A stretch of DNA of 61,982 bases, filler included, from Hausera hauseri (taxonomy: Eukaryota), in the NCBI GenBank assembly GCA_046269625.1. It is 10 parts of 10 records of this genome, joined end to end, with 100 filler letters (N's around TTAATTAATTAA, not from the genome) between each part and the next. Parts side by side here need not be neighbours in the genome. Positions count along the whole stretch, not along the records: positions 22,092 to 27,321 come from JBJURY010303278.1; 9 more parts are not named here. One strand, given 5' to 3'. The position numbers were made by a program, and so were the translations under genes. Numbering within the stretch: the stretch's first letter is position 1; every line of letters starts with the position of its first letter. Below, piece by piece: positions 13,190 through 43,322 of the stretch. The notes under the pieces were generated by a model. That model did no database searches and had not been told where the DNA came from. It saw only the letters and a program-made list of their open reading frames with translations.

Positions 13190-13712
13190 TTTTCGAAAAA
13201 ATTTTTTTCGAACTCGAATATCTTTTCACCAAGTTTCCAAATAATTTTGGTTGGAAGGACAGAAATGTTCAGTTTTCCCAGCTCTATCGGATGGTATAGG
13301 TAGCAAGTCTGTAAGACGTAAAAAACCGACTATATAGCGATTCGAATATTTTGAAAAAAATTTTCAAAATGAAATATCTCGGCAAGGAAAAATCGTATTG
13401 AAGTGGGATCAAGTTTGCAGATGGAGAAAAACATTCTCTATCTTGCACACAAATTATTCGAAAAAATTTTTTCGAACTCGATATTTCGATTTACCGAGTT
13501 TTCAAATAATTTTGAGTACTGCATGAAAAATGTTTCGTTTTTTGAGTTTTATCGACTGGTACAGGTCGGAAGTCAGTATAACTTACGTTTCGAATATATA
13601 TATATATCGATTCGAATATATGGAAAAAAATTTCAAAACGAAATATCTCGGCAATGAAAAATCGAATTGACATGCGATCAAGTGGGTTAGATGCAGAAGA
13701 AAATTCTCTATC
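13190..13712. repeat. Two diverged ~265 bp tandem units inside a probable non-autonomous DNA transposon remnant (about 13020-13930)
   Basis: TTCGAAAAAATTTTTTCGAACTCG ... GAAATATCTCGGCAA(G/T)GAAAAATCG ... ATTCTCTA occurs twice. Confidence 0.75.
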
Positions 13713-13968
13713 AAGCACTTAAGAATGACGATTTTCAATTTAAGAAAAATTCGATTTTCAGTGCTTAAAATATTCGAAACGCAATAATTCACCCCTCCCC
13801 CCAAGTCGTATTGATCTGCGATTAAGTGTGTCGGAATCAGGAAAATATCCTCCATGAAATAAAATCAAAGTAATCGATTTCCAATTTTTTCGATAAAACT
13901 CGATTTTCGAATATTTTTTCGAATATTTTTTTTAATTTTGTCATGTATATGACGATATTTTATGGTTT

Positions 13969-14045
13969 AGCCCGAATGGGGTAATATGACCCTTTTTAGT
14001 TGTTGAAGATTAGCATAGATTGGACAACTGAGATCGCATTTTCCC
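13969..14045 (+). repeat. 77-bp exact direct repeat, copy 1 (copy 2 is the contig end 21915-21991)
   Basis: AGCCCGAATGGGGTAATATGACCC...GATCGCATTTTCCC identical; preceding base differs. Confidence 0.95.
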
Positions 14046-15249
14046 ACGAAGCGAAGCCAAACCTCCAAATGACGAGCATCAGCACGTGACAGAAGAACAA
14101 AATCAATCTTTGTAAAACTCTTGGCCATTTGATTGAAATACGAATTGCTAAAATTTGAGTCCCATCCTCAATTAAGTAAACAAGTAAGATTATTTATCCG
14201 TAACAGATAACGAAACGGTTCATTTTCCTCTGTTCCAGAAAAAGCATGTAAAGTACTAATCGTATTTGTCATTTTCGCGGCCATAACAGTAAAATTCCAC
14301 AATTTCAAATTACGATGTAGCTTCAAAAATATCTTAGATTTAAATTGTAACTAGAAATTTTCAAATTATAACTGACAACAAATTATTCGATAATGCATAG
14401 AATGAAGCAGAAACTGATTGATAAATTTCAAAAAAATGTCCGTTGATACAATGTATATAAACGCGTTTTTTGAATATCAAAACAACAAAAAATTAATAAA
14501 AAGATCGGGTGAATAAGACTATCATGCACTAACCCCCGCGACTCCGTTATTTTGATGTGGTACGCCGTTTTTGAGGAATTGTGAGAACGTGATGTTTTCT
14601 TAATTGAGAAATTTTCTTTTTCTAGAATGTACAAATTTATTGCAATAAATCTTGTTTTATGAAACTGAATAATTGACGACAATTTCTGTTACTTCCTATT
14701 TTACGTTATTCGTAAAATAATAATAAAACCTAACGGGAACTGTACAAAAATATATTCAAGAAAAATGAATTGCCTTTTGCTACTTGTTTCTTTACGGGCG
14801 TTTACTTAGTCATTATATACATCGAATTTCTGACTTAAGTAATTTATTCTTATTTTTAATCTCCAAGACAAATTCTGCCTTTGATGTATCCAGCATTTTT
14901 ACTATGATTTAATTGAACTGTATAATATTCATCATGATATCCACCATCTTTTAGATTAAATTCCGAATTGGAAAGTAATTCTTTGTAACGTAATGTTGTT
15001 GAGAAATGTTTTACATCAGATCGATAATTGGTGATGAGCATTAAGATATTGTGGTAATGAAATCGTTATAATGACACATGTCAATCTCTTTCCGTAAAAA
15101 TCCAGAAATTTTACGGAACTTAAGTTAGTTTCCGCATTATATTTTTATGCAGGACTATGAAAGACCGATGAATTCAGTGGGTATTTTTATGTGCTCTACA
15201 TGCTTTAGTTGGGCTTGTATTGTCATTCGTTACTTCCAACTTCAACCCA

Positions 15250-15488
15250 GGCTTTTCAACGACGATTATGAAACAAACGGTCAAGATTAAAAGATAGAAT
15301 AATTGGTAGTCTGATAAACAGCCAAATAAGAATATTGATTTTATTTGACACTAATATGAACTCTTCGGCTTCCAAAAAACACAGGACAAAAGGTAGAAGG
15401 CAGGACGAAAACCGTGCCGGCCTACCTGCACCAAACGGTGACTCTGTTTCCAAAAATGGAGGGTCATGTCCTAGAACGTTGCACTACA
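15250..15488 (-). repeat. 3' LTR of copy 3 (distal end uncertain)
   Basis: TGTAG start after purine tract; AATAAA near 15340. Confidence 0.55.
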
Positions 15489-18400
15489 TCACCCCCGTGG
15501 CAGAGAAGAAACTCTAAACCAAAACAGGAATAGGCAAAATTCATAAGAATGTTTGATATCCATTGGGTTTTGGTGTTTATAAGGCGTTGTATTCCTTCTA
15601 CGGATTTTTTCCTGCTTTAGGTAATAAATGCCACTCTGCATGCCTTATTTGATTGATTTGTGCTTGGCTGTTGAACGATATTTTGTGGTAGACGTTTTGT
15701 AAGGTTTTCTGATTTAATGTGCTGTGTTGCTTATGGTGAAGACGTTGAAGATGGTGAAGAGAATAAATCAAGCAAGAGAGACGAAGAAACTGAATGCGGT
15801 GGAAATGGTGAAAGAGGGGGAGAGAGGCTGGCTGAGAAAACGGAACAAGCAATGTAGGTACAGTAAGCGGTGCGGACGATGAGGATAATTTAGTGTGAGA
15901 GAAAATGATTGCTGCAACAGAGAGAAGTCGTGGAGAAAATTTGATGAAGCAATGGAAGGAGTGAGAGTTAAGTTAGGGTTGGAAGTAGAATCGGCATCCG
16001 GGTTGTCGTCAACGAAAAAAGCAGGCTTAAGATTCGAAATGTGAACGTTGTATGGTTTGTCTTGTCGTAAGATGGTAGCTTTATGAGATGAAAGGTGAAG
16101 CAGTTTGTATGGGCCAACATACTGAGGTTAAAAACCCGAATGTGATTGATCCTTCAGCCAAACAAACTTGGCTGAGTATAAATCCTCCGGAATGTACGAT
16201 TTCATATTGTTAAAAAGGCCACAGAAGGAGTCTAAGCTGACCTCAACAAAGCGAGACTGTGCCGCGCGAATGTTTTCGTCTGTCGGATTGTCGTCGAGGT
16301 CGGAAAGTTCGAACAGAGGACGTATTGGAGTCCCAAAAAGTGCCTCAGCTGGAGCACAACCCGTGGTGGTGGGAGGAGTGTTGCGCCACCCCAGTAGAAC
16401 AAATGGTAGGATGGATGTCCAATTGCGATGATTGTCTGTCAAGATTTTTAAAGAGATCTTCATTGTTTGATAGAACCTTTCAAGAAGGCCATTTGATTAT
16501 GGATGGTACAGTGTTATATGGAAATGTGATATCCCTAAGAGTTTAGCAAGCGATTTAAAGAGTTCCGATTCGAACTGCGGACCTTGGTCCGTTATGATGT
16601 GCCGTGGGGTCCAAAACGACTGATCCAGATTTTAATGAAGGCATCTGCTAGTGAATCAGTGTTTGCTGAACGGAGAGGAATGGCTTTAGGCCAGCGAGAA
16701 GCATGATCCATCACAGTGCGAATATGTTGATACCCGTTATCAGAAGGTAAGGATCCAACGAGATCAAGATGGACGGTATGAAAACGTGATGTACATGGGA
16801 AATGGTAAAGCGACGGTTTAAGATATTTGTTGACTTTGTATTTTTGACAGGCGACACATTCCTTAACCCAACCTTGTGCATCTGTGCGCATTGATGGCCA
16901 AAATGCATGACGTTGGAGAAAGTGAAACGTGGCTTTCGAGTCTGTATGATGAAGTGGATGCGTGTAAAAGAAAGCTGGTTTCTGCAAAGAAGGAGCGAGA
17001 ATGATTTTTTTATTACCGGTGTTAGATGTGTCGTATTCAAGGCCATCAATAATTTCGAAGGATTTAAAAGAGATAAGAATGTCAGCAGACGGCTGATTGA
17101 GCTTTAGAATTTCTGTAGAATATATTGGTTCAACCGTAATTGAGCCGATCGACCGCGACATGAAGTCCGCGACCAAATTCTCAGTACCTGAAATATACTT
17201 TATGACAAAACTAAATGTAAATAGGTACGATATCTGTCGTTCCTGCTTCGGTGATGGCTGTTTTAGTAACATGATGTGCAGCAGAGACTTGTCATCCGTT
17301 TGTATGATAAATGGACAAGAGAGAAGGATATGTTTTAAATGTTTTACTGCCAGAACTATGGCTAGTAGCTTATGATCAAATGTTGAATATTGGCTTTCTG
17401 GTTGTGTGAGTTTTCGAGAGTAAAATTCCAAAGGTTCATCGACGCCGTTGGAAATCTGGTGTAGTATTGCACCAGTATCTGTGGCAGAGGCATCGGTGGT
17501 AAGTATTAGCTCCGCGTCGGGTTTTGGATGGGTCAGTATTTCGACGGTTTTTAGGCCTTCACGTAAGTGACCGAATTTGGTGACTAAATCTGGAGTCTAT
17601 TGGATTAACTGTCTTTTCTTTCCAGATGAGAGGTGTGCGAAAGGTGCTGTAAGCTAAAAGCAATGCGGTACGTATTTATGGAAGAAATGTAGTGTGCCAA
17701 GAAAACTCCTCATATCTGTAGTGGTCGTTTGTTGTATTACATTTTTCAATTGCTGTAGTCGATCAGGTTGTGGAGAGTGGCCGTAATGAGTTATGATGTG
17801 GCCTAAGAAATTGACACGTTTATGAAAGAAGTTGCACTTGGAGAAGTTAAATTGTAAGTTGCTATGATGTAGTCTGTGAAAAATAATTCGGAGATGTTCA
17901 TGGTGTTGTTTGACGGAGTTGGAGGCAACTAATATGTCATCGATGTAAGGATAAGCAAAATCAAGACCTGAGAGAACGGTGTTGATGTGGCGTTGAAAAG
18001 TTTGAGCTGCGTTACGTAAACCGAATGGCATAAAGATGTATTTGTAAAGGCCAAATAGAATGATGACAGCAGTCTTTGGAATGTCATCAGGTGCAACGGA
18101 AATTTGATGGTAGGCTTTGTGCAGATCTATTGTGGAATACGTATTGGTGTTGTTAAGACTGTGCAGAATGTCTTTTATGATGGTCTCACCTTTTGTCTGA
18201 TAGGTCTCTGATGTTGGGTGACAATGTGTTGATAAGTTATTTAAGGAGACTTAAAACTAGAGTCCTTTTTGAGTATAGGAGAGCAAGAAGAAATGATTTA
18301 GGATTTGAGATTGGAATCTAGTGATAAAAATGATTGAGGCATATGATCAGAGGAGGCGGTGATTGTGATTTGCGAGGAACGAACGATATCGCCGCCGTCA

Positions 18401-20390
18401 ACATTCGGTTTAACGGATTGTTTTAAAATCGACTTCAATATTTGAGATGTAATTGAGAAAATAGATAAACTACTAGATGTATGGTTATCAACCGACAAGC
18501 AATTTGCCAAATTCACATGTGAGTTCGCATACTATGTGCATGTTGATCTGTCTGGTAGAAAATTGCTAACGTTCGCGACGGAGTCTTTACGTAGCAAACA
18601 GCCATACTTGCAGTCAACTAGCAGGTCGTGTGAGGCCAAAAAATCTGAGCTGATTATTGGCGATTTAATATTGGTCACGTGGAATTTCCAGAAAAAACTT
18701 GCCTGTTAAGTTTCAAAATGTGAAAACGAGTTCCATGGTACCTGCGATTCGCAAAGGTTGACCGCTGGCAGTGAAGAGCGGAGGAGAAGAAACTGCCGTT
18801 AATGTAGGGATGAAGGGAGGAGTAAAAAGGCAGCTCCTGAATCGATAAGGAAATCGATATGTGGAGCATTGCTAGAGAACAGTGTAACTTTTAACAGAAA
18901 AACTGCGGAGGAGGTGTTAAGACGGCCAGAAGACTCAGCAGTATTGTCTATGCCAGAATGTGTCGTAACATCTGGCGGCCTTTTAATTTTTTGAAGATTG
19001 TGGAGGAAAAGAAGATGACTGATAAGAAGAAGGAGAAGAAGAAGATGAAGAAAAATTGAAGTTGTTTTTGTAATATTTACATCCCGGAACCCACAATCTG
19101 GCTAGAGAGTGTAACTTTGTGTAATAAATACAGATAGGGCTGTCCACCGCATATCGCTCGTCATAAAATTTACAGTCCAAGAGACATTTTTCTGCGTTTC
19201 TACGAAATTTATTGTGATAAAAACAAATCATTCGTCCGCCGGGAGATTTAGAACGAAATGATTGCCTGGACAGGCTACGCTTACGCAATGCACGAGTCTC
19301 ATCTCACCGAGACATAGACAGATTACATAGTTGGGCTGTAATGGCGGAAATTGAATGTTGTAGAGTATCGTATTGTTTCCGCATTAATTGTAGTTGCTGT
19401 GCGCAAACAGTCGTGTCTACGTGCGATGGAGTATGCGTGGTTGCTGCAGCTATGAGTTGTGAGTTGTTAGTTTGCAAAATTTCGAAACTTTTATCAGCCA
19501 ATAGGGCAAGTTTTTCAATCGCCGTCGAGTCGTTAACGACAGTAAGGAGAGCTCTGATGGAAGTGGGCAAGGAGGAGAGGAAACAACGATGAATCAAGTC
19601 TGCATTGATGGTGGGAGTAATGCCAAGGCATTTAGGTGTAAAATAGAGGTCTGCAGAAAGTTAGAAGGCTTTTTATTGCCTATAGCATGTTCGTTAACGT
19701 ACTTCTGTATTATATTATCAATCGGTGGATCGGTAATATGAAGAACGAACTCATAAAGCATGTCATATGTTGTTGGAGAAGTAAGGATAGCAGCAAGGTT
19801 ATTTATATGATGCTTGATATTTGCTAGGAGAAGAAGTAACAAGCTGTTGGTGCGCAAGAAAGGTTCAGTAATATGATTGGCTTTAAGCCATTGTAAATGT
19901 AATTGTAGCCAAGTGCGGCTTGAATTAGTTTTATCGAGGAAGAACTCTGTGTAAGGAAGATTAGGAGAAGCAGATTGTGCAGATTTCGCAGGGCGACGAC
20001 CAGATCTTGTTTTGGAGGAATTTTGAACAGAAGGATCAGGGTCGGAACCACCCCGGATGTGAAAGTGAAGGGTGAAATGAATGATCGGAGAAGCGAAGGA
20101 AGAAAGTGAGTCAGACGGGTGTAGCACAGAACCATGATGCGACAAATAAAAGTCGGAGGTGTGTAGGAAAGAGGATAGAGACATATAGAGGGTGTAAGCA
20201 ATGTCCGTTTTACTAGTATGTATGGTAGAAATATGTGTTATTTTTAAAAACAAAAAAGAAAGGGGTTGACAAGTGATGCCAGAGGCATGTTGTGGCGCAC
20301 GGATTACGGATGCGCCCAGGTTTCCGACCAGATGATGTTCGGGCCTCATAGACGAAGGAGTAATTGCCACAACTGATCCGTGATGGCCAG
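15250..20390 (-). mobile_element. Degenerate CsRN1-like Ty3/gypsy element (copy 3)
   Basis: gag 19000-20050 with CHCC x2; RT MPFGLRNAAQTFQR/YIDD (17654-18031) with internal deletion near 18185; RH-IN 16128-17431; PPT GGGGGTGA then TGTAGTG LTR start at 15488; leader CCACAACATGCC shared with copy 1. Confidence 0.92.
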
Positions 20391-20394
20391 TGTT

Positions 20395-21640
20395 CATCGC
20401 AGACTGGTCAGGTTCTCCGTATGTGTCAACAAATTTAGAGAGTCGTGGATGTTTAATTAACCACACCTTATAATTCGAATAACCATAGAAAGCATCGATA
20501 TAACATGCATCATCGTCAATAAAAGGAATATCATCATAACTATCGCCAATTCGTAAATGGTTTTCCGCTTAAAACGGTGCCACTAAATCTGAATACAGAT
20601 CGTCATTATCAATAATCATAAAGGCGTCCTGTTAAATTTTCACCAATTCCGAATCCGTCTTTTTCAACAGATCGTCATATCCATCCAAATCCGGTGGTAC
20701 TATAGGTAATGAAAAATAAGTATTCGGTCGTGAATGCGTCGGTGATGGTGACGGTGATGTTTTTCGAAATATGGAGTTTGGTAACGTGTTACAGTAGTAA
20801 TCTTCGGAAAGTGTTTGTTTCTTGTTGGAAAATACCGATACGTAGAGTGAGGCAACGGTATGGCTCATTGCCATCTGATGGTTTGATATGAAATAGTCGT
20901 AGAGATCATCGGATATAATCGTACGAGTACAAGAATGGACATCGGATGAAATATCCAAATCACAAATGACTGCCAAATTGCGATTCAAAGTGGTGTTCTT
21001 ATTAACCAATAATTGCCCTGAAGAGTTTTGACAATGTTCTTATGCATCGTTTTATCGACCATCTCTTCTTCAATTTGATATGGAGTATTAGTCGTTTGTT
21101 TATTGTTGTTTCTATTCGGCATACATAATATTCGATTTAATATGAGAAACTGGTCCGAATGCGTTTCATAAAATTCCGATTTGTCTAATAATTCACTGTC
21201 AGAAATTGTTACATTATTGTCCAATGTAAAATCTCTTCTATGGGCAAATTACTCTGTTTTACGACATTATCGATGAGATCAATAGAGGTATTATTTCTCG
21301 TTGCTGTATTGGGTGGTATCTCGTAATCATTACCTACATCGTTCCGATTTACACACTCATGAAATATGTTTTCCACGTTTTTATTGAATATTTGAAGCGG
21401 ACTACCATATGACTCATAAACACACAAATTACGCGAGGAATTACTATTCATTGTTATTTTGTAATTACTACTACATTTTGGATACAGTAAATTTAAATCT
21501 GCGTCAATAATATCATAAGAATTTCGCGATGTGTCACACGTTAGATGATTTAATTCAAAATCATGATCGGTTTGGTTCTGTTTTTTGTTTTCATTTATGC
21601 GTTTGATTTTGTCACTTGATAATAAAATTGATTTCATTAA
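20395..21640 (-). pseudogene. Unknown AT-rich protein, disrupted
   Basis: Chained ORFs 21209-21637, 20985-21224, 20632-21009, continuing through stops to IGDSYDDIPF...FYGYSNY...YGEPDQS. Confidence 0.45.
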
Positions 21641-21914
21641 ATTTTCAGAATAATCATCGGCTTTGTATTTTTAATTATCTCATTTCTACAATCGGCAGTT
21701 TATTTTAACTGGTTCATGATCGACCTGTAAAAGTCCAAGTGACGTATGTAAATTGTCATCTGAAAATAAGGAATAATTTTATTCAGATCACTGCTTCTCT
21801 CAATTAATTTAATTTCGTTGGTGGTATTTTCTAATTGTAAATTATCACGTATTTTAATATCGCTGGCTTTTTCATTATGAATATTACAAAAAATGGAGTC
21901 GCTGGATTAAATGA

Positions 21915-21991
21915 AGCCCGAATGGGGTAATATGACCCTTTTTAGTTGTTGAAGATTAGCATAGATTGGACAACTGAGATCGCATTTTCCC
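21915..21991 (+). repeat. 77-bp exact direct repeat, copy 2 (contig terminus)
   Basis: Identical to 13969-14045. Confidence 0.95.
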
Positions 21992-22091: not shown

Positions 22092-23148
22092 TTAAAACGG
22101 CCCTCCACGGTCGGTGGTAGATGACCCTTCTTTTCTTCAACCTTAATTCCCATTTGTCTCATAACAGTTGGATGGGTTTCTATCTCTCTCACTCCGGTTA
22201 TATGCGTTACCGGTATGGCTAATTTCTTTATCATCCTCTCTACTTGATACCCCACTAAGATGTATCCATAGAGGCATTGTGCTACTTTTTGTTGCACTAA
22301 ATCGGAATCCTTTCCATGGTTTAATTGTTCTCTTTTAATCCCGGTAACTTCTGCATAAGTTTGTAGCACTTTCTTTCTCGGGTTAATGATTTTCGAATAG
22401 ACCTCGGCACAGTTTTCTTCTCGGATGGATATTTCGATCGGAATATAATTTCCCTCTTCTCCTTTCCCATAATTTATTGCTACCATTCTGATATTCCTTT
22501 CATCGGCCACCAATCTAAACGAATGTAGATGTGCGTCCTGTTCGTCCTCCATGGGCCTTTGTCTAAATTCTAAGGGCGGCAATGAGACGATTATTATCTC
22601 CTCTTCAGTCGTCTCGATCATCATCTTTACAGGTAAGGCGGTCTCACGAAATTCCAGTTCGTAGTTATGGAGATTCCTACTGTCAAATACAAATGTGCTG
22701 AACCGGGTTTGCCTTCCTTGGAAAGAGTCCCATTTTTGATCTTTCAATTAATAATAAATTTCCCCGTCGGCCAAGTGCACATATATCTTCTGTTCTTTAT
22801 CCGTTTGATACTGAGTGATCTGTATGAAGGAGTATTCCCTAGCATCTTTGTCCTCCCTCCATGCGTACAAGTATACCGCTCTGGCCTTCTCGGTTGTCCC
22901 TTTTAACCCATTTGGTATCTCTCCAACTTTCCCATACTGAACGAAGCTTTTTCCTTGTAACTCCGTACTGATTTGCCTATAGATGGCCTTTGAGTTCGGT
23001 ATTCGCACTGTTACATACCGCCGTAAAAATTTGTCAATACTAAGTCTACTTGTGTTTTCCTCATTGTCGACGCTAAGTCGGCTCGTGATTTCCTTGGCGT
23101 CGATTCTAATTTGGCTTTGGTCCATATGGATCTGACTACTTCCAAATC
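22092..23148 (-). pseudogene. ORF3 N-terminal half: unknown domain plus REX4/ISG20-like DEDDh exonuclease fold
   Basis: 22748-23125 and 22092-22747 are one frame split by a single TAA (Arg in copy H); VYSKIINP..VTGIKREQL..VQQKVAQCLYGYILVGY. Confidence 0.72.
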
Positions 23149-23245
23149 TAAAATAGAAAACATAAATGTTAATCTTAAAACAAAGGATGGTTTTAAACCA
23201 AAACCAATTCTTTGTTTTATGACAGAATAACCTGATCTGTAATTG

Positions 23246-24660
23246 TCAGGTTATTTTATCATACGGATCTATAGGGTTTTCCAATTCCCTTAATTCCCAT
23301 TCTGCATTTTTATGACGCTCAGAATAAGAGTATTTGGTAAATAATCGAAAAATCGCAATTAATGTAATGAGAACAAACGTTGACAGTATAAAGATGGACA
23401 TGATCGGCAGTGTAGTTAATCCATTTGGCGCTTGTGTGGTGATTAGCGTTGTGATTTCCTCGTCTATATTCTCATGTGTATGCGACTCGGCACGAATTTC
23501 ACCTAGGATATGTAATGTAATGGTTTGCTTTTGTTTATTTGTTGCATGTACTTGCACTATGTATTCGGTTTGTGGGTTTAATAAATTGCAATCTGTTTGA
23601 TAAGTATCTTTAAATAGCGTCATGATTTGATTATTATATGTTGTTCGACAACTTATGTATATATTGTAGTTTTGTCTCTCTTCCACAAAGAACACAATCT
23701 TAGATCGGTATGCCGAATATTTAATAGGAATGCTCCCTAATTCTCTCCTAAGTACACTGCCCGACGTAGCGATTGTTGCAATGGCAACAACTCAAGTGGT
23801 TGGTTCCTAGTGGTCAATTCTACTGTGATTTTGCATATTCTATTTTCCGGATAATAAGTTCGTAATTGTATGCTTGGTTTATTAGGTCTCACTTCGTATA
23901 AATGAAATTTTATTTTAAACTCTTGATTCACGGGTAGTTTGCAACAAGGGTGTTGCATACCTGCGCGAATAGAACAATATTCTATTTTCGGGGTTGGTTT
24001 CCTTTTTGCTTCAAATGTGATGCTGATTTCTAGGTTGACATGCTACCTCTGTTTTGGCATCTACTTGGATGCATTGTTTTTGCTTGTTTTTAGATATTCT
24101 CCGAATATTTTGGTCTAACAGTCTCACATCTGGGTTGGTAGATCGTAGCAATTCATTGGGTTTTACTCCATGATGTCTGTTCCACGCAGGGATGACTAAT
24201 TGAAAGGGTGGTTATACTTTAATATAAACTTCGGCTGAGTCTGGTAAGTATAGATGATAGTTAAGGTTATATATATATATGCCAAAAATCTATATTGCAA
24301 CACTGCGTATTTTCTCCTGGCTCAAAATCACAATTCTTCGCTTCCTTTGTTGTTACATCATATAAACCAACTTGAAATCTTCCGAAATCGTTGTGTGGTT
24401 TCCAATTCTTAAATCCAACACATACGGTTTTGGTGAGTAATAATAAATTGTCATTGATTGTAATAATTTAGCATCTTCTTTTCTTCGGATATCTTTGGCT
24501 GTTGGTTTATTTTCCGTTTTAATCGGTTCCGATTTTGATCCGCTCTTCCGAATTCCGTATATATCTCCTAACGTAGACTCATTGTGCCGTCATTGGGCTT
24601 GTGTCCTCGGAATATAAGAAGCAATTAACGATAATGCTAGAACTACCTAAACGTACGAGA
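23246..24660 (-). pseudogene. Type I membrane protein with FN3-like repeats in env position, disrupted
   Basis: Hydrophobic VVLALSLIASY signal; Cys-patterned beta-rich repeats; LNPQTEYIVQVHATN FN3 motif; TM IMSIFILSTFVLITLIAIF; tail PYDKIT. Confidence 0.75.
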
Positions 24661-25385
24661 TCGGTCTGGCAAATACTGAGGAAGTTTTTACCTCACGTTG
24701 GCGTAAATTATTACGCTTGTTTGGCCGTATTTCTGTCTTGACAACTGTTTGTACGGGCACAACTTCTTCCTTTCCATTTTTGTTAATATATACTGTAGTT
24801 GGTGTAACTCTGATTACTTCGTACGGTCCTCTGCCTGTACGGGTTAATTTCAATGAGGTGCCTTTTTTAGCTACAGGATAATGTACATAAACCCAATTTC
24901 CTTGTTCTATATCATGCGGTTTTGTTTTCTTATCATTTTGTTTTTTAAATTGTTCTTGATATTCTTGGGATAATTTTTTAGCGATCTCCCAACACTCTTG
25001 TAATCGCGTTTGTAATACCTCTAAGAAAATTTTGTTCTAAATCTTCGGGATTTACTGTGTATGGCGTCATTCCTAAGTCCGTGGGCAACACGGCTTCGCG
25101 TCCATACATCATGAAAAATGGAGCGATTCTTGTTGCTGGATGTGGTGTGGTATTAATAGCAAACTGAGTCCCTTCCAAAAATTCGTCCCAATCTTTTTGG
25201 TCCTTAGCCACTACTGTTGACAGTATACGTATGACGGTAGCATTTATCCGTTTGACCATTCCGTTACATTGGGAATGATATGCAGCATTTGTTAATCGTT
25301 CAATTTTGAATATCTTAGTGATTTTCTCAAATAGTTCGCTGGTGAAATTTCTTCCTCGATCTGTGAGTATCTGGTCTGGGGAACC
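24660..25385 (-). pseudogene. pol: Integrase, C-terminal part with GPY/F motif
   Basis: TDRG, WDEFL..TQFAINTTPH, PFFMMYGRE, GRGPYEV. Confidence 0.9.
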
Positions 25386-25389
25386 CCAA

Positions 25390-25833
25390 TTACCAATACG
25401 TCAAGCACAATATCGAATGAAGAACAATATAAATATCTCTAAGTTCGATAGTTCAACGTCTAGCTTGATGATGCTTTTCTGAAGGATTTCACTGCTTCAA
25501 GTCGCTCAACAACAATCACTGAACTTCTGATTTGTTCAATTTTCTTCAGGTTTATATACTCTTATGCTTCTCAATTAATTTTTTTATTATTTCATTTTCT
25601 TCTATTATTATTATAATATTTCGCTTTTATTCTGATTAACAATACCTTCTCGTCACTGATTAATTATTATATTGCCTACAATCTACATTTATTACATTCA
25701 AATTGATTGTTATTTTTGCAAATCTAATTATTTTCATTATACAATCCTGCGATTCATAATTAGTTCTACAATAATTAAATTCGCTTGCGTATGTACATAT
25801 TCCGTTGTGAATTCTTACAGCTGTACTACAACA
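25390..25833 (-). repeat. LTR or LTR fragment
   Basis: PPT AAGGAGGAGAAA then TGT at 25833; TATATAAA near 25555; non-coding. Confidence 0.6.
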
Positions 25834-26545
25834 TTTCTCCTCCTTGAGCGGCATCCTCGAATGTGCCCATTGTGTCAGGAGAGGTGCCGTGAGAATGAGG
25901 CCGTCGCAACATTTCCATACGTCGTCTTAGACTGGGTCCGGAGCTGGTACTTGGTTGGTTTTCTCTGGGATTTGTTTCGAGATCATAACTGTGGTAGGGC
26001 TTTATTCTAACTATTCTGGTATAGCTACCGTTTGAGTAATATTTTAAATTGGCCGCTTCGGATCTACATACGGGGCATGTTGTTTTTCCATTATCCAGCG
26101 TCAATTTTTCTAAGCAGTCTCTGCAATATTCGTGACGGCAATCAGGGTTATTTAGCACTACGTATCCCTGTTTCAGATTTGCCTCACATACGGGACATTC
26201 GTTTTCTTCCCTTTTCCAATTTTTATCGTCCAAGTCTACTCTTAACATAATTTCTATAGGTTCTGATACTAACCCGTTTTCGTCTTGGTATAAGTAAGCA
26301 GAGATTCTTTTTTTCTTCGGGTTTATGAAACTATTTTTGGGATCGCATCCTACGGATATTAAAGTCCAGTAGCTGATAGTGTCTCGATCTAAATCGGGAA
26401 CTTCACCAGTCGATCGGTATTTTTGATATTGTTTCTTCAATAATAGTTTTACTGACTTATCCACGGGGATTAATATTTTACCATTTTGTCTGGACTGAAA
26501 TATCGGGGCAACGTATTTTCTGATCTTAAAATTTTCCCAGACATT
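25826..26545 (-). CDS. RING-HC (C3HC4) finger protein fragment, C-terminal end of ORF3 of an adjacent copy
   Basis: CPVC..CRHEYCRDC..CPVC; N-terminal RKYVAPIFQSRQNGKILIPV matches KYITPIFQSKRNGKLIVPV at 48100-48180; stop lies at PPT/LTR start. Confidence 0.8.
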   Translation of the reverse strand, partial: NVWENFKIRKYVAPIFQSRQNGKILIPVDKSVKLLLKKQYQKYRSTGEVPDLDRDTISYWTLISVGCDPKNSFINPKKKRISAYLYQDENGLVSEPIEIMLRVDLDDKNWKREENECPVCEANLKQGYVVLNNPDCRHEYCRDCLEKLTLDNGKTTCPVCRSEAANLKYYSNGSYTRIVRIKPYHSYDLETNPRENQPSTSSGPSLRRRMEMLRRPHSHGTSPDTMGTFEDAAQGGEML

Positions 26546-27149
26546 CCCCAAACGTTCCCAAACCACAGGGACACTGGCAAATGGTTGCTAGTTTACAGAA
26601 TTGTGACAATAGATACTGACATAAACATCAGTTCCACCCTAGAATTAAGCTTGATGACAAACTAAATGTAAAAGAATGATAAAATAAGAGCCTTCCAGAG
26701 ATCTTTTCAAGCATTCATCACAAACACAGACAACATTTCGTTAACAATTAACAAATGTTCATGCCTCGCGTATCCTCCAGGCCATAGTTTCAGCCGAAGG
26801 ATTAAAAAAGACATGGTTTAATTTTGCAGCCGATAAAAAAACAGGTTCCTGCTTTATACAGACAAAACCCTGTACACTGACTGCAGAGAAACAAAACATA
26901 ACAGTACTTAAAAATTATCAACTTCAGTGTAATTAATAAGAAATGTAAGATGCTTTAGTTTTCACTACACCAATTATATTATTCTACTTTTGTGATGCTA
27001 GGTCTGGATAGTTCCATGATGCAGTGTTCCAGAGAACTAGACCGCATCACTAATAGTCATGTCACAGGGTAGTTTTGTGCTGCATGACGGTTTGATCGCA
27101 TCAGGATCAAGCAGCCTGAACCATCTGACCTTGTCACTCGATAAGGTAG

Positions 27150-27290
27150 AGCTGTAGTCAAACAGCGGTTAGTACACCTGCTACCCACAAGGTCAAGAGT
27201 TGATTCCCAGGAGTTGAAGGCTTATTTTCAACCAAAATGGCTATGGGGTCGACAGTCTCAACCACTGACACCAGGCAAATTTTGTGATCA
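27150..27290 (+). mobile_element. tRNA-derived SINE remnant
   Basis: Degenerate A box (AGCGGTTAG) and B box (GAGTTGATTCCC). Confidence 0.4.
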
Positions 27291-27321
27291 CAGACATGTC
27301 TACTGCATGGACTCATTTTGA

Positions 27322-27421: not shown

Positions 27422-28371
27422 TGTTTGTACGTCTGAACAAAATCCGCATTCCGACCCAAACTGATGTAATTCACATTGCTATGGGTAAACTTTTCCGAAT
27501 CGGTGGTATAACTGCCTGTTTGGTGAGCAGTCGTTTGAAATGTAATAAGCACAAATTTCATCAGTCGCATGTCTCTAAACAGTACATCTTTGTAGAACGA
27601 AGTTGAACCTTTGGGTATGGTGTAAAACACGAGTTCTCTGCGTTGTAATGGATAACAGGCATTTTATATTTCCAAGCCCAATAGATGTCTCATGTGCACA
27701 GATGGTTCTATCTTTACACGACGTACGTATAACCGTGCCTCGGTAATTTTCAGTATTGGTTTGAGATTTGCAACTGTAGTTTTCCAACGAAAGACATTGT
27801 CGCTGCATTGTAGCCGAATGATGGCTTTAACATCAGACGCTAGGTATTTCGGATGATCAAAAAAGTCAAAGTACAGCGGTTTACACATTGTAAGTGCTTT
27901 TGATGCTGCCACCCTTACCTGACGGTTTGCTGCAGTGGCGTCATATTTGATATTTTTCGTCAAATGAGTCGTTTTTATGTCTGTGCTGTAATTCAGAGCC
28001 GTTTCAATGAGTGCTTTGATACTGTATAGACTGGTGTTGTCTTCGATTTTGACGCTGTTCAGAGTCATTGAAGCTTCCTGGAACAGTGTGAGGAAAAAGT
28101 ACTTGGCCGGTGTGACATTGTATGTTGCAGCGAGAACCGTTGATGTCACTTTTTTAACAATGACTTTTACACAGAGTAGCGTATCGTTCAAATCCAGGTA
28201 TTCATTGTCTGATGCCATTATGTTGAAATGAATGTCAATGTTATCATCCGTTGAAACCGAATCAACGGAGTAGATTTCTTCAAATAACACACTGTCAATA
28301 ACAACTAGTGGCGCGCCTTTGTCAAATATACACAACTCAGATTTTGCAGATGCCATTTGTCTATCTGTCAA
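27422..28371 (-). pseudogene. Maverick major capsid protein (double jelly roll), frameshifted and cut by gap
   Basis: KSELCIF..IHFNIMASDNEYLDLNDTLLCVK..ITEARLYVRRVKI typical of Polinton MCP. Confidence 0.85.
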
Positions 28372-28375
28372 TCAG

Positions 28376-28712
28376 TCAATCGAAAATCGTACAACATCGA
28401 CGTTTGTTTATAGCTGATGAACTCGATGATGCTATACGGCATTTTCTCATCATCAAGCCACTGCCAGCGAATTGTTTTTTGACTGATTCAACGACTCCCG
28501 GTGAAGCGCTTTTTATTTCCGACAAGGCGTGTTCCTTCAGTGATGGCAAAATCGATTTATTTTCATATAGTACGTACTGTGCTGTTTTTCCTGCCACAGC
28601 ACCGATACGCTCCAACACCGGAAATGCTAAACGTGCCAATGTACGCAACCATCCAGACCCATATTGTTTACCAACGAAATACGGCAGATCCCCTCCATAC
28701 TGGGGTTTCCCG
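28376..28712 (-). CDS. Maverick small core/amphipathic protein
   Basis: QYGGDLPYFVGKQYGSGWLRTLARLAFP and FAGSG: repeated adenain-type GG/GSG cleavage-like sites; basic C-terminus. Confidence 0.65.
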
Positions 28713-28733
28713 TAAATGGAAACGATTTAAGAA

Positions 28734-29807
28734 TCAATTATGTTGGATTTGACGGAAATGAAGAGTTAGACTGCTTGTGGTACCGTACGGAAATTCAATT
28801 AGGTAGCCCGCGTCACATCCGATATTCACTTTAACATTGTTTATAGATGTAGATACCACAGGTAGGCACATTGGATTATCGAGTTTGCCAGCGACATTGT
28901 CGCCGGCAGTACAGTTGCTGCTTTCCGGATAAATTGAACGGAGTAGCGGTACAAGTACTCCACCGAACAAAATCGGATCGGTGACATTTACGTAAATGTA
29001 CATTTGACTTAGTCCCGTTTTCAGTTTGGGTTTGAGTGTTGCAACATGTACCACCGCCGTCTTCGTATTCGTCGATGCCTCAAACTTCTGTATTTCAAAA
29101 CTCAATATTATGGTCAAAGCTTTGTCCAATAAAATGTTAACAAAATCCGTAGCCAGTTTAAATTTAATGTACTCGTACTCGAAAACTTTAAATATCGCCT
29201 TGTACTTTTGATTTGAAAAGTGTTGACAGAACTGTGCTGCAGATTCGCAATAGACATTGTCTCCAATCGATACGTATGACGTTGACACAATTTCTGTTGT
29301 ATAGGTAAATTTCACCGTTGTCTGGTAATATACGTGATTTAATATATGAGCAACTATATTTTCACTTTTAATATTTGTACCTATTTACTCTGAATTTGTG
29401 AATCCAAATTTCTGCGCCATCTCAGAGAAATCAAAGTTAACAGTAAATTCAAAATCTGTCATAAAATGTAAGTTTTTCCCTAAAATAAAAACATCGATCT
29501 TGCTCAATATGCCGTAATTTGCTTTGGTTGTGCAAAAGCCCGATTCTCAGACTGTTATATTTTTGTTAGTAAGTGTCAGAGGACAAGAATATGTTATGGT
29601 TTCAGTAACAGTCTTATTGTACGTTATTTTCATACTACCTTTCAATGTCACCGGTGCGTAGAGAAAGTTAAATTCCGTCAGTGCAACCTCCCATTTTCTA
29701 CCCGATAAATCCAAAGGATTGTTTTAATTTACAATGTATTCACTGGCGGAATTGTTCAGACGAGTCGTTGGACAACTGTTGTTCGGCAACACAATGTTAA
29801 TACTCAT
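28734..29807 (-). pseudogene. Maverick minor capsid (penton) paralog 1
   Basis: MSINIVLPNNS..PLDLSGRKWEVALTEF; C-terminal MYIYVNVTDPILFGGVLVPLLRSI..SLTLHFR. Confidence 0.82.
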
Positions 29808-29851
29808 GATCTCGATGATGATGATGATGATAATGATGAGAAAGTTTGTTT

Positions 29852-30933
29852 ATTATCGAAGACGACGACGAAGTTGTAGCATCAAATGTGTCTTGGCTCC
29901 AAACAGAAATTTAATGGATTTTCAAAATTCGTCTACTATTTACACGAAAATACTGTGCACAGCATCAATATAACGGTACGTACATGGGCCGGATGATATT
30001 TACATGAGCATTTTCACCCGGTGCTTTATACGTGTCCGAATCCAATCCAATATAAGCCAATAGTTGTTTACGGTATCCGCCAATATATACGGGTTCGGTT
30101 AGATCCCTTAAAATATTGATTTGATGAAATGCTTCGTAGAGACATGGTTTCTGTTTAGCAACAATGGACCGTCCGCCGCCGGTTTGACCAAATTTTCGTT
30201 TCTTAAAACCCAGATTCCTTGCCAATAGTTCATCAAAGGCAAACTGTGTAACATTATCGTGCAGTGTAAAGGAAATACGATCATCGGAATTTAATTCAAA
30301 TGTCTTGAGAGACAATTTAGCTACTGCCTTGATGGTTGCACACAATTCTGTTTCCGTTTCCGTAAGAAAACCAATTCTTGTTGTATGGAAGTAAAAGAAT
30401 GATTCAATGTTTTGCCAGTTTACTGTAATATCCGTGGTTTTCGCAGTGGAAAAGTTAAATTTTTCACTAAATATACTATGTCCACCGAGCTGAAGACCTT
30501 TGGAGTGGACATTGGCAGATGATTGAAAACCCCATGCTTGAGCATCTGCTAGTGATTTAAACTGCAATTCAATCTGATGTTTGTGTTTTAGCACCAATCG
30601 ATTGTTTAAATGAAAAATATAAACCTCTATACTTTTTCGCTTGTAATATTTCCGCTTGTAATTGCGAACGTGAAATGTTACATTAGAGTCTCGGACTAAC
30701 TGCAAACGACTAGATGCACGAGATTGTCTTACTAGGGTATAGTATATTCTACTGTTCTCACGTATTGTTATTGGTAAAAATGTAAACGTGAATTCCGCCG
30801 AAGCCACTTCCCAGGCTCCCTGGCGTAAGTCCAGCGGCTCGTCCAACTCCATGGTAAACCGTTCAGCGGTATTGTTGTTGTTGTTGTCATGTTCTGATAA
30901 TCTGTTACTATTAAGTATCAAACAAATGCTCAT
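29852..30933 (-). pseudogene. Maverick minor capsid (penton) paralog 2
   Basis: MSICLILNSN..PLDLRQGAWEVASAEF; C-terminal DLTEPVYIGGYRKQLL..RPMYVPL..HLMLQLRR. Confidence 0.8.
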
Positions 30934-30934
30934 C

Positions 30935-31960
30935 GCTCAATCTGCGAAGCAAAAATCAAACTCCGTGTAGTGTATCCGTGCAACTTGAGGAGATATTGAT
31001 TATTCGAACCTTTGCCGCGTGAACGTAGAATTTCCTGAATACGATATACATTGGGTTTCTCGGGCAGTACCTGCAGTTCTTGTTCGAAGAATTTACCGCG
31101 TATTTCCTCGCCGTTTTCATCCTCTAAAACGCACGTGACAGGTATTTGTTTTGTGTTGATTGCCGAAATGCGGAAAACCTCGTCGCTCCAGTTCTGATTG
31201 AAATTCTTAATGAATGGCGTCCTACTTATTTTGAAATACGTACATAATCACCGATTTTATATTTGGACGTTTAATTGCCTGTCGTTATGTTCAGTTTTGA
31301 TAAAGCCGCATGTCCAAATTATCGATTACGCCAACTGGCCGTAATCCATTGATGCCACGATGTGTCGAATGATTCTATGTATGAATAATATCCGGCAGTA
31401 CATCTACCCAGCGTTTGTTGCCTTGCTTCGTAAAGAATTTGTACAGGCGACCGCGCAATGTTCGATTAAATCGTTCAACTAGTGCAGCCTTGTATTGGGA
31501 AAACACTGAGTAGTGGTTTCGCCAAACCGTTTCAAGACCGCTGCAACGTGGGCATTGTAGAATTCCTTACACAAATCCGTTTTAAATGCTTCGGTTGTTG
31601 TTTTTGTATTAGTGTCTGAACAGCGTCGGCAATCTCTTTACCGGATTTAGATTTCACAGCAATTGCACGGGCAAAACGACTAAACACATCAACACATGTC
31701 AGGATTTACCGATACCCATAGTTGATGCTGGTGTACAGAATCATTTCCATCAGATCCATTTGCCATACATTATTCACACAGGCAGAACGTATGCACTAGT
31801 TGGAAACTGCCTTCTTATCGGTTTGTTTAGACTGTATACTAACTGTTTCCCGAGCCAACGTTGGGTCTGCTGCCGAGTTTGTTTGACAGTCTTTTCCAGT
31901 ATACCCGACTGAATGACGCGGGTCGAACCAAACATTGTCTATTGTTGCCGTCGATGATGT
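30935..31960 (-). pseudogene. Maverick retroviral-like integrase with chromodomain-like end, heavily disrupted
   Basis: WFDPRHSVGYTG start; WQMDLMEM, TCVDVFSRFA, KAALVERFNRTL, RWVDVLP, QNWSDEVF, GKFFEQELQ pieces in shifting frames. Confidence 0.85.
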
Positions 31961-32099
31961 CGGTTTTGCTTTTATTACAACAATTAGAACGAAACGTAAA
32001 TGAAAGATTCGGTAAATTGGGACAGAAAGAAGAAAACCATACACATATATAGCCGAATCATCATATACTTACCGTCATTGTTTAACATTATGGTATAGA

Positions 32100-32315
32100 A
32101 CTAATGAGTCTACCCAGTAATGACGTGACAATCGGTAGAATTTCACCATGAATCCACCAACCTATCGTTTCAGTCGTTTACTACAGGCGTTGGCAAGGCC
32201 AATAAGTCGTTTTCGATACTTTAGTAAATTCCGCTTTTCACTACCAATGTCAACGTGACCCACGACGATATTGTACAAAATTTCCATCAAATCGTCTACT
32301 ACAAACTGTGGGAAT
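32100..32315 (-). pseudogene. Maverick basic core protein fragment
   Basis: LMEILYNIVVGHVDI..LLKYRKRLIGLA..GGF pattern typical of the small gene upstream of Maverick integrase. Confidence 0.6.
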
Positions 32316-32415: not shown

Positions 32416-33569
32416 TTATGTTTTATCTCTCCTATTTTGATAGATATTAATCAATCATTTAGTAGTACATTTAATCAATATTCATAATTAACTATGAGTT
32501 TATTAGAATACTAATGTGCTGTTTTTATACTTTATTTGTGCTCACACACACACACAATGCTACATTGTTTTGGTCTTGACAAAAACCACACACACATTTT
32601 CCCGTGGGAGACATCTTCACCTGCATCCTCCTCTCACACTCTTATCTACTTTTTCCCAGAGGAGAGTTTATAAAAACTCTCGTCTATGCTAATGGCTAGT
32701 TAGTTGGTCTGTTGGTCAGTTGGTCTGTGTTCGTCTCGTCTTGTCCTGTCCATCTGGCATGCTGGGGACGCCGTGAGGGTCTCCCAGCATTTTCTGCCAC
32801 TCTGAGCTGGAGACCACTCCAGCTATCCTGCCGCAGCAACCCTTCCTTCTTGGAATTTACAAGGAACGCTTCTTCTCTGGAGCTATGACCTCGCCCAGGA
32901 TGGTTATTCTTAACTGCCTGCCTGCTGTGTGAAGCCTGGTCCGGCTGAGCGGCCCTGAGAGTCCCCTCGCCTTGTCACGCTGGTGACACCCTCTGTCCTG
33001 TACCACCCATGACTGGTGGACTCCGGTTCTTTCCCTGCTTGGGTCAACACGTCTGATGGGTCTACGACACGGTAAATTGGCGAATCCAGGGGTTACCTCT
33101 TCATTCTGGGTTTAAAAGCTCATTCTGCTGGCTCACAGGTTCACACTCATATACAGCTTAAAGGTCATATAACCTTAGCCTTAAACTAAGATTTATTTGT
33201 CTGTTTATTCTTCTTTTTTTTCTCTCCTCTTCTCCCTCTCACATATCTACACACACACACACACTCACACTCATACGCATACACACATACACAAGTGTAC
33301 ATAACTGCATATGCTTAACTAGTTTTAGTTATTTAGAGGAGTAGACAATTATACTGAGAGCTCATTTATTGTTTGATCATTGTAATCACCTATTAATCAT
33401 TCAATATTATCATCAAAATAAAAGTCAGTTAGTTTTTAACTGGCCAAAATAAATCTACGACTCATCGTGTGTGTTTTCTGTGTGTATTTTGATGACTGAA
33501 CTATTTTACTAGGAAAAGGCCTTAAAAGAACCTAAAGGTAGAGTTGCTCTTATTAGGGTTTACACTACA
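32416..33569 (+). repeat. 5' LTR (start possibly cut by gap)
   Basis: TATAAAA near 32669, AATAAA near 33417, ends CTACA just before PBS. Confidence 0.7.
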
Positions 33570-33574
33570 TATTA

Positions 33575-33586
33575 TGGCGAGCCAGC
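33575..33586 (+). promoter_or_regulatory. Primer binding site, tRNA-Arg(ACG)
   Basis: TGGCGAGCCAGC matches the first 12 nt of the tRNA-Arg PBS TGGCGAGCCAGCCAGGAG. Confidence 0.8.
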
Positions 33587-34805
33587 GCGGAGGTCAAACT
33601 GGTAAAACAGTCATCAATTTTCACAGAAAACTATAAATTAAAAGCTCATAAATTAGTCTTAAAAAAAAAGGCTCCAAACTGCTCCAAAGCTGTTTCTCCC
33701 TCTGTTCTTATCAGAGAGATTGTGTGTGTGTCCGCGGTGCTGCAGGCAGACTGCCGGACGCATCTCTCTCTGCTTTTCTCCTTGTAAATTTTATTGCTGC
33801 GTTTCATGTGTTGTGCCTTCAGAGTAAAATTGTGTCTAAAGAAGCAGACGTGTTTCTGTGGCATAGTTTAATTATTCTCTGTTGTGTTTGTTGTTATTCG
33901 TGTTTGTTGTAGAAAGAGAAAGAAAGAGAAAGAAAGGTGGTTGTGCATGCAAATTGTTTTATGATCGATCAGGGCGAGTATTCGCTTGGGATAATTGTCC
34001 GCTTGTCCGCATATTCCGGAAAGCCTGACAGTTTTTCCCCACTTCGTGTTGACTTTTTCTGCTTTGGCCAAGTAGAGAGTTGGCGCCTGCTTATTTCATA
34101 AGCTAAGGTAGAAGTGTTTGTCGCTGCGTAAATACTCCGTTTTAAGCTACGGTTTTTAGCGGTTGCGGTTGACTTATTCTGTCAGCGTGATACTGACGGA
34201 TTTCCAGAGCTTTGTGTTCTGAAGAACAGACTTTCTGTGTCTGTTGGTAGAAGGGACCATCGCTGCGTGCGTTTGGTCATTGTGTTTCGTGATTTACGGT
34301 ATTAAAACCGTGTTGGTTGGTGGAGTGTCGCTACTGTGGTAGCTACGCCATTGTTGAACAGAGAAACACTGTTCTTGAAGCCGCTCCCCCCCAGGGTAGA
34401 GCATTCCTCTCTTGTGAGTGAGAGAGAGAGAAAAAAAAAAAGATCTTTTAAAAGAAACCAGAAAGGTTCAAACTTGTTGTGGTGTTTGTGTTGATACTCT
34501 GTCCACGAGTGGAAGAGTCAGAGAAATACTTTAAAACTCTTAGTGTTTTAAAGTTACGCCGCTGAGCGTTTTTCTACAGTGTTAAATCACTAAAGCAGGA
34601 GACAAGGACACCTCCTCGCTCAGGCGAAACAGAGTTTCCGCCATCTTGAAAAGAGCTAACAGGTTCTGTTAGAGTCCGTCCCTTCCAGAGGGCGGAGTGT
34701 TCACTCTCAGTGAGTGAAGAAAAAAAAGAGCAGTGTTGAGAGAAACTCAACCTGAAACAGCATTTTGATCTGTTGGTCTTTAAAAAGACTTAAAAACAGC
34801 TCAAC

Positions 34806-43320: not shown

Positions 43321-43322
<2 letters not shown>

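Follow-up and report, generated by a model that had tools for sequence, protein, structure and literature searches.

Results

Two diverged copies with a shared gene order

The window, a stretch of 61,982 nucleotides joined from 10 records of the Hausera hauseri assembly GCA_046269625.1, contains two related contigs, C (22092–27321, JBJURY010303278.1) and H (48083–52563), which we compared; all features described below lie on the minus strand. Both contigs present a gypsy-type integrase followed by a single-pass membrane ORF, a splice-acceptor-like site and a further ORF, ORF3. A preliminary description had claimed two diverged copies with the same order behind the integrase, and the alignment of C 23139–25379 with H 49882–52039 (74.3% identity over 2,249 alignment columns) bears this out, with protein-level similarity extending on to 22094 in C. 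The indels and stops of the two copies fall at differing sites, also as described earlier. The further idea that one intact ancestor could be rebuilt from them fared less well, at least for a uniform shared ancestor: because synonymous divergence is higher in ORF3 (0.86) than in the integrase and membrane ORF (0.52–0.54), the comparison suggests that C and H may be mosaics.

The integrase of C is represented by its 3′ part (24650–25385), of Ty3/gypsy type with a GPY-type C-terminal module and a frameshift near 25025, and that of H by a broken core and C-terminus (51330–52255). The Pfam rve profile matches at E 0.0044 in C and E 4.6e-8 in H, and the GPY motif is present in both (the name GPY/F module for the integrase C-terminus follows PMC5408684); an rve-type DDE integrase whose C-terminus carries a GPY/F-type module is characteristic of Ty3/gypsy elements. 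Between the copies, integrase dN/dS is 0.09 (227 codons). Neither contig, both being short, holds a gag or RT of the ORF3-carrying family. Scans of viral contigs, JGI metagenomes and GTDB genomes returned no related locus, blanks that are weak because the scans use exact short patterns. One viral-contig scan gave two weak RING-type matches, of 28% and 35%.

The membrane ORF

In C, the membrane ORF (23249–24646, about 465 codons) is broken by stops and frameshifts; in H (49988–51330) it is likewise broken and is 63% identical to C over the last 190 aa. The C copy starts with a signal-like hydrophobic stretch at the integrase junction (hydropathy 1.92), continues through an ectodomain with cysteines, an FN3-like domain (about 23480–23740) and a Thr-rich stalk, and ends in one TM helix (23404–23336, hydropathy 2.72) and a tail with a terminal YxxI motif; cysteines are common to both copies, and dN/dS between them is 0.24 (392 codons). 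The ORF had been called an FN3 membrane protein of host-derived appearance. Its single-pass architecture stands, and the FN3 assignment is weakly supported: the fn3 profile scores 15.2 bits in C (E 0.026) and 14.0 bits in H (E 0.059) against a Pfam cut-off of 25, Interfer-bind matches H at E 0.038, and there is no FN3 chain among the PDB sequence matches. In a structure model, the TM helix is the sole confident part and the ectodomain, at pLDDT of about 30, does not resolve into a fold. No homologue of the membrane ORF was found, and its host-derived look is not borne out.

Splice-acceptor-like site and hairpin

Both copies carry the splice acceptor proposed earlier ahead of ORF3, or at least an acceptor-like site: a branch-like TTAAC, a 17-nt pyrimidine-rich tract and an AG, spanning 23148–23172 in C and 49891–49915 in H and ending at 23148 and 49891, respectively. 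An in-frame ATG follows at 23125 in C and 49874 in H, and identity between the copies drops directly after the AG. Just upstream, a conserved RNA hairpin (23219–23263) encloses the TGA of the membrane ORF (23248–23246). Its fold z-score is −6.74 in C and −2.67 in H, and among the sequencing-run contigs the bin 23142–23316 reaches a depth of 31,170, and loose contig ends fall at 23219 and 23263.

ORF3 combines two predicted dead enzyme folds with a RING finger

ORF3 is found in pieces. In H, the acceptor-like site and a broken ORF3 with an N-domain, an exonuclease fold and a basic low-complexity linker occupy 48083–49915, where the contig ends before the RING; in C, a RING-bearing 3′ piece lies at 25826–26587, with its stop at 25828–25826. 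P0003, an intact natural protein of 870 aa encoded on a contig of 16,242 nt (that of P0002 has 12,445 nt), matches H in residues 86–226, 234–346, 345–465 and 632–665 and the C piece, at 25826–26542, in residues 641–870 (46% identity over 237 aa), and the last 40 codons of H (48202–48083) resemble the head of the C piece (65% over 40 aa). The intact P0003 spans both and shows that the two pieces belong to one gene. That the RING follows the exonuclease, as first described, is evidenced by the H tail match and by P0003; within contig C itself this order was rejected, the RING piece lying upstream of the integrase.

The N-domain (22595–23044, with an in-frame stop at 22750–22748) is predicted to be a 2OG-Fe(II) oxygenase/AlkB-like barrel; it has the double-stranded beta-helix fold and is recognized by that fold alone. 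This domain was missing from the preliminary domain list. A motif scan of P0001, P0002 and P0003, made at the level of sequence motifs rather than residue-level structural alignment, found no HxD/E iron motif, and the N-domain of C lacks one as well. The second domain (22094–22510, ending at the contig edge) has the fold and the sequence relationship of the REXO4/ISG20 group of DEDDh exonucleases. Here the earlier reading of a dead exonuclease proved right, the fold being real and most DEDDh residues missing in C, H and P0003: of the catalytic D, E, D, H and D, contig C has A, N and M, with the remainder past its end, P0003 has A, N, M, L and C, and H keeps the first D only. Judged from these residues, ORF3 as an active nuclease or demethylase was rejected. 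The RING finger of C (26066–26197), of C3HC4 type as in P0003, has all eight zinc ligands and scores above the Pfam cut-off in both (PF13639 E 4.9e-8 and PF00097 E 4.4e-7 in C). P0003 also carries a basic KKRRK stretch.

The DEDDh site is intact in the relatives P0008, P0009, P0010 and P0022. The protein tree has 18 rows and leaves out the multi-exonuclease proteins P0004, P0007 and P0016; P0018 was dropped, being repetitive in sequence and matching only by chance.

The 3′ end and the rearrangement of contig C

The last codons of ORF3 overlap a polypurine tract (25834–25845, 12 of 12 purines) with TG next at 25833, and the last six residues of P0003 are identical to this end of ORF3. In LTR elements, plus-strand synthesis is primed at such a purine tract with TG after it. 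The junction, absent from the preliminary description, has the highest depth of the stretch: in sequencing run X1, depth is 32,700 at 25828–25851 and falls to about 22 below 25804, and 44 loose-ended contigs beyond the tract agree at only 0.46. Behind it lies an AT-rich segment (25390–25833, 72% AT) with a TATA-like box at 25558, joined directly to mid-integrase; from its position after the tract we infer that it is an LTR. The polypurine tract and TG-starting 3′ LTR of Ty3/gypsy elements are present, the LTR by its start only. No partner LTR, terminal inverted repeat, primer site or CA-TGG junction was found in the window, in which C is deleted at that point and the contigs are short. With the RING piece ahead of its integrase, C is rearranged and appears to be a deleted, permuted copy, running from the ORF3 tail through the LTR-like segment into an integrase cut mid-core, as after a deletion. 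Of the proposed placement of the extra ORFs between the integrase and the 3′ LTR, one part holds, as ORF3 lies between the integrase and an LTR-like start; neither contigs C and H nor the public collections scanned yielded a full-length copy that has gag and RT and is bounded by two LTRs.

Abundance and selection

The family, very common, now decayed and probably from an animal genome, numbers 8,448 contigs in one sequencing run, and purifying selection has acted on both of the extra ORFs (dN/dS 0.24; pN/pS 0.27). The dN/dS values, checked in part, are far below the value of about 1 that the preliminary description had named as fatal to its proposal. These results support the view that the extra ORFs genuinely belong to a large repeat family and are selected within it; a chance adjacency of host genes was rejected on the strength of this selection and of the intact P0003.

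Discussion

We tentatively read C and H as decayed members of a very large family, likely one of LTR retrotransposons of the Ty3/gypsy type, an interpretation to which we give slightly less than an even chance. The 3′ half of the family would hold two selected accessory genes, one for a single-pass membrane protein and one joining two predicted catalytically dead enzyme folds to a RING finger, the latter likely a nucleic-acid-guided ubiquitin ligase directed against host defence. ORF3, of about 820 aa, would be translated from a subgenomic RNA spliced at the 23148 acceptor, starting at the ATG that follows. Both dead domains, the AlkB-like barrel and the REXO4/ISG20-like one, may retain their binding surfaces and capture RNA or a host complex that handles RNA, and the RING would recruit an E2 and ubiquitinate what has been captured, with silencing or nucleic-acid-sensing factors as the most plausible targets. 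The membrane protein, cleaved from the end of pol or spliced, would reach the surface, be sorted by its YxxI tail and have a role in attachment or in budding; it would not be a fusogen of the F or gB type. Overall, the accessory proteins likely disarm host defences rather than fuse membranes.

A bolder version of this reading is possible, though doubtful. The family would then be an undescribed complex lineage of Metaviridae with four genes, in which pol is followed by an FN3-type surface protein that does not fuse membranes and by a RING ligase with two pseudoenzyme domains, drawn from a wider unnamed barrel-plus-exonuclease family whose other members keep the DEDDh site; a single conserved hairpin would decide whether the ligase is made in soluble form by splicing or in membrane-anchored form by readthrough, and the whole would serve as an RNA-guided degradation tool against host silencing.

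With the same anatomy, ORF3 could instead be a helper of the Rev or CERV kind, its dead domains binding the genomic RNA for export, protection or packaging, its RING serving turnover or budding and the upstream hairpin being the RNA target. We consider this rather unlikely. An intact RING points to a protein as target, which speaks against the helper, but both dead folds come from RNA-acting families, the conserved hairpin sits just 5′ of ORF3 and P0003 has its KKRRK stretch. Caenorhabditis elegans Cer1 does encode such a helper, CERV, although no RING finger or exonuclease is given for it in the accessible text of PMC10309623.

The ligase may also be anchored to the membrane. In C, the membrane ORF and ORF3 share a frame and are separated by a single TGA followed by CAR-YYA, the readthrough context of plant viruses, and the 33 linker codons after the TGA are open in the ORF3 frame (as in 5.3% of shuffles); the H linker is open except for one 1-nt gap, and P0002 and P0003 extend stop-free upstream past the acceptor-like residues. 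Stop-codon readthrough would then fuse the membrane protein to ORF3 as a minor, membrane-anchored ligase that clears surface or membrane proteins of the host, either in addition to the spliced product or in its place. This we regard as unlikely, although SIRE1, with an in-frame stop ahead of its env-like ORF, provides a precedent (PMC2194720, accessible text). The first base of the context differs in H, three other stop-plus-CAR-YYA sites occur by chance on the same strands, and a second linker frame is open in C. Linker dN/dS is 0.29, but the pN/pS interval reaches 1.09; moreover, the stop lies inside the hairpin and not ahead of it, and the YxxI tail and the acceptor account for the conservation without readthrough.

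Less probable still is that the membrane ORF is a true envelope of an unrecognized fusogen class, ORF3 being accessory to an infectious, errantivirus-like element. The position after the integrase, the length, the signal-like start, the shared cysteines, the one TM helix and the sorting-type tail would all suit an envelope, as would the purifying selection. Against this, eight pieces of the broken ORF gave no match to Pfam fusion-protein families at E up to 10, a weak argument because the pieces are short, no furin-type RxK/RR site was present in the pieces examined, and the weak profile matches belong to the FN3 clan. In the accessible text of a survey of metazoans, F- and gB-type are the only kinds of Env named (PMC13524379), and for an Env of either type after pol the evidence here leans against, though no further because the membrane ORF is broken. 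It is very improbable that the locus, instead of being an LTR retrotransposon, is a mobile unit that has only an integrase or is non-autonomous, whose end is the purine tract and beyond which the DNA is unrelated: contigs linking neither gag nor RT, post-tract sequence in few copies and the lack of a second LTR or inverted end would fit, but both contigs are short, the tract and TG stand at top depth and in the last residues of P0003 as an LTR priming site, a TATA-like box follows, and the C integrase is cut mid-core.

To our knowledge, counter-defence proteins are rarely known from invertebrate LTR retrotransposons. An abundant family that keeps a RING ligase and two disarmed RNA-enzyme folds under selection is a testable candidate, and the intact natural protein P0003 opens the way to assays of E2 activity, of RNA binding and of targets. 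The four relatives with an intact DEDDh site allow the step from enzyme to pseudoenzyme to be traced. Surveys seeded with F- and gB-type Env would likely miss membrane ORFs that, like this one, occupy the env position without a fusogen signature.

Gypsy elements with accessory ORFs, some of them bearing exonuclease or AlkB domains, have been published before, and the combination described here is without precedent in the papers found. Our search, covering main texts (Repbase, GyDB, Dfam and supplements, including that of PMC13524379, were outside its scope), found the full combination in no paper, and none joining a gypsy retrotransposon and an additional ORF with a RING finger and exonuclease, a retrotransposon env with CARYYA readthrough, or a gypsy LTR retrotransposon ORF3 with fibronectin type III. 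The comparisons that follow draw on the accessible parts of the papers cited. The poxvirus proteins C10, C4, A37, F11 and A51, inactivated prolyl-hydroxylase proteins of large DNA viruses, share only the fold with the ORF3 barrel, and no fusion to an exonuclease or RING is named for them there (bioRxiv 10.1101/2022.11.22.517515). Errantiviruses likewise have a membrane ORF directly after the integrase, but with F- or gB-type fusogens and three ORFs, and RING, exonuclease and fibronectin never occur in the main text of their survey (PMC13524379); here no fusogen signature is seen and a fourth ORF follows the membrane ORF. Burro and GYPSM1 of planarians are animal gypsy elements with ubiquitin- and apoptosis-related domains, read as anti-host tools, but these sit in a gag-env-pol polyprotein of 4,900 aa with an F-like Env before PR, and for Burro no exonuclease, AlkB or FN3 is named in that text (PMC6431247); the cargo here lies downstream of the integrase, between it and the polypurine tract, in contigs that cover the 3′ part of the element. 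Ty3/gypsy elements of Phalaenopsis orchids resemble this family in that an additional ORF encodes a 2OG-dioxygenase (AlkB) domain, but theirs is an active m6A demethylase in plant elements of 25 kb (PMC9289625), whereas our barrel lacks HxD/E. Juno and Vesta of bdelloid rotifers are likewise gypsy-like with an exonuclease-type ORF behind pol, a 3′-5′ exonuclease in their case, and some families have a small TM-containing ORF3 (PMC5408684). Their exonuclease is DEDDy (RNase D-like), with intact catalytic residues, and forms the one extra ORF in third position, whereas ORF3 here joins a dead DEDDh domain of the REXO4/ISG20 kind with a dead 2OG barrel and a RING finger and is placed behind a separate membrane ORF, in the fourth position.

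Results

The gene order of the candidate complex gypsy retroelement put forward in the preliminary description is borne out in two diverged copies, one on the contig at 22092-27321 (C) and the other on that at 48083-52563 (H), both read on the minus strand. Integrase, membrane ORF and ORF3 follow one another in each, the copies align at 74.3% identity over 2,249 columns (C 23139-25379 against H 49882-52039) and, as had also been claimed, their breaks fall at different places. At the protein level, the likeness extends as far as the end of contig C, and both copies carry an rve-type integrase (Pfam E 0.0044 in C and 4.6e-8 in H). The RING finger had been placed downstream of the exonuclease within C; this was mistaken, as it is on the upstream side of the integrase that the RING piece (26587-25826) is found. 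Since the final 40 codons of H match the head of that piece (65%), the exonuclease part joins the RING piece, and since an LTR-like segment joins directly to mid-integrase near 25385, C is a deleted, permuted copy. There is a hint that this join is common to a small nonautonomous subfamily: two contigs end at 25390, one of 468 nt (depth 15.5) that is identical and one of 279 nt that has diverged, with 33 differing letters.

An exhaustive search with the N-part of ORF3 (E up to 0.001) returned 20 proteins, the best of which, P0003, is intact at 870 aa. Its residues 58-377 align with C at 41% and its residues 641-870 at 46%, and five of its stretches match H; it has its RING at residues 747-790 and shares its last six residues with C's RING piece. 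ORF3, with its predicted dead 2OG/AlkB-like barrel, dead REXO4/ISG20-like exonuclease fold and RING, is a single gene. A second relative, P0002, is 42% identical, and both are encoded on ENA contigs. Seven proteins (P0005, P0006, P0008, P0009, P0010, P0012 and P0022) combine an N-domain similar to that of ORF3, short in P0012, with an exonuclease that keeps D,E,D/E,H,D in four of them; in a tree, a 100/99 branch separates these seven and the ORF3-type element proteins from 8 stand-alone REXO4-like proteins.

The membrane ORF is about 465 codons long. It opens, where it meets the integrase, with a hydrophobic segment resembling a signal peptide, has a single strong TM helix (hydropathy 2.7-2.9) and finishes in a tail whose last residues are YDKI; in C, one frame is common to the end of the integrase, both ends of the membrane ORF and ORF3. 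Of the proposed FN3 membrane protein, the single TM helix stands, and FN3, the top or second Pfam match of the membrane-proximal domain in both copies, stays below the cut-off (E 0.026 and 0.059). Given these scores, a two-sequence structure model resolving the TM helix alone and a search for homologues of the ORF that found none, we treat the FN3 identity as a lead; the host-derived look proposed earlier for this protein gains no support from that search.

Comparing the two copies over their shared in-frame codons yields a dN/dS of 0.09 in the integrase (227 codons) and of 0.24 in the membrane ORF (392 codons); a ratio near 1, named earlier as evidence against the family's genes, is not seen. 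For ORF3, where synonymous sites are saturated, pN/pS is 0.27 (95% 0.22-0.33, 257 codons), and a shifted-frame control gave 0.8-1.5. Synonymous divergence is higher in ORF3 (0.86) than in the integrase and membrane ORF (0.52-0.54), which suggests that C and H are mosaics and that ORF3 was exchanged between subfamilies; the rise begins right after the acceptor (22094-23143 versus 48900-49900).

The putative splice acceptor reported before ORF3 is recognizable in both copies as TTAAC, which resembles a branch site, followed by a pyrimidine tract and AG, with an in-frame ATG 22 nt (C) and 16 nt (H) past the AG; C/H identity falls directly after the AG. The membrane ORF stop is enclosed by a hairpin with z-scores of -6.74 for C and -2.67 for H, in the second most deeply covered stretch. 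A longer hairpin at 23183-23218 follows in C (z -4.18 for the whole 136-nt stretch); for H, folding predicts no counterpart (z 0.26).

The repeat family is large and diverse: 8,448 contigs of run X1 and 541 of run X2 map to C, most being <95% alike, with summed depth not equal to copy number and depth dropping to <=4 beyond 26642. Run X1 may derive from the source sample.

Elsewhere in the window, 1-12675 and 12776-21991 contain three gypsy copies that are decayed and lack env but show RT, RNase H and integrase domains; presumably CsRn1-like, they share only 24-28% with C's integrase. Preceding the integrase of H, an open frame in inverted orientation, 52241-52552 (+), resembles the PR-RT spacer of gypsy pol; a Pfam search gave no match. 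Gag-like ORF pieces at 57172-59487 (+), with a zinc knuckle (E 0.028), precede further ORFs, and DNA and protein comparison found no link to C or H. At 39248-41511, a mariner-type transposase (Pfam E 4e-20) neighbors an ORF that weakly matches ubiquitin-like sequences (E 0.0003). At 27422-32315, 52664-56611 and 61307-61981 are pieces resembling Polinton/Maverick capsid and protein-primed polymerase genes; the only matches obtained there were endonuclease VII at E 0.0005 and, more weakly, a DNA polymerase family at E 0.02. Because the contigs at 32416-37402 and 41612-47982 look, in our estimation, vertebrate (fish-like), the window, in which spacers join ten contigs, may mix organisms.

Discussion

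The accessory cassette of C and H, in which no full-length copy is present, is genuine, under selection and unusual, and the family it belongs to is likely Ty3/gypsy. The anatomy of the copies is observed. Each functional step of the model we favor, to which we give somewhat less than an even chance, is inferred: ORF3 would be a counterdefense ubiquitin ligase made from spliced RNA, its dead folds would bind RNA or a host RNA-handling complex, its RING would ubiquitinate what they bind and the membrane protein would be used for attachment or budding. That ORF3 is instead a Rev/CERV-like helper seems unlikely, though it is the strongest competitor. Rather more doubtful is a membrane ligase produced by readthrough: in C, CAR-YYA, a known readthrough context (PMC2194720), comes after the membrane ORF stop, and 33 codons past the stop are open. 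In H, however, the first base of the context is different, the pattern occurs by chance at 3 other places and another frame likewise lacks stops. Readthrough at this stop may be kept as a lead, splicing being the better-supported predicted route to ORF3. A membrane ORF acting as a fusogen of an unrecognized class we hold to be slightly less probable still.

The ends of the element bear on the last alternative. ORF3 terminates within a run of 12 purines, with TG next at 25833, and a purine tract followed by TG is the plus-strand priming site of LTR elements. Depth is 32,700 at the tract and about 22 behind it, against 500-3,600 inside, and 44 loose-ended contigs behind it agree at only 0.46. 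We infer that tract, TG and depth drop fit a priming site and a variable LTR; against this count the second LTR, inverted end and primer site, looked for and not found, and the low depth behind the tract. The segment behind the tract, 25390-25833, is common to very few copies, which points to a highly variable U3 or else to an unusual LTR. A non-LTR unit is highly improbable.

Searches of article texts returned no paper with the combination of modules in the cassette. Its parts have counterparts: ORF3s of the DEDDy type, intact, are found in the Juno and Vesta elements of bdelloids (PMC5408684) and, in the passages available, orchid gypsy elements are described with an active AlkB (PMC9289625), planarian Burro elements with ubiquitin-related domains within the polyprotein (PMC6431247), metazoan errantiviruses with F- and gB-type Env (PMC13524379) and poxviruses as retaining inactivated 2OG folds (bioRxiv 10.1101/2022.11.22.517515).
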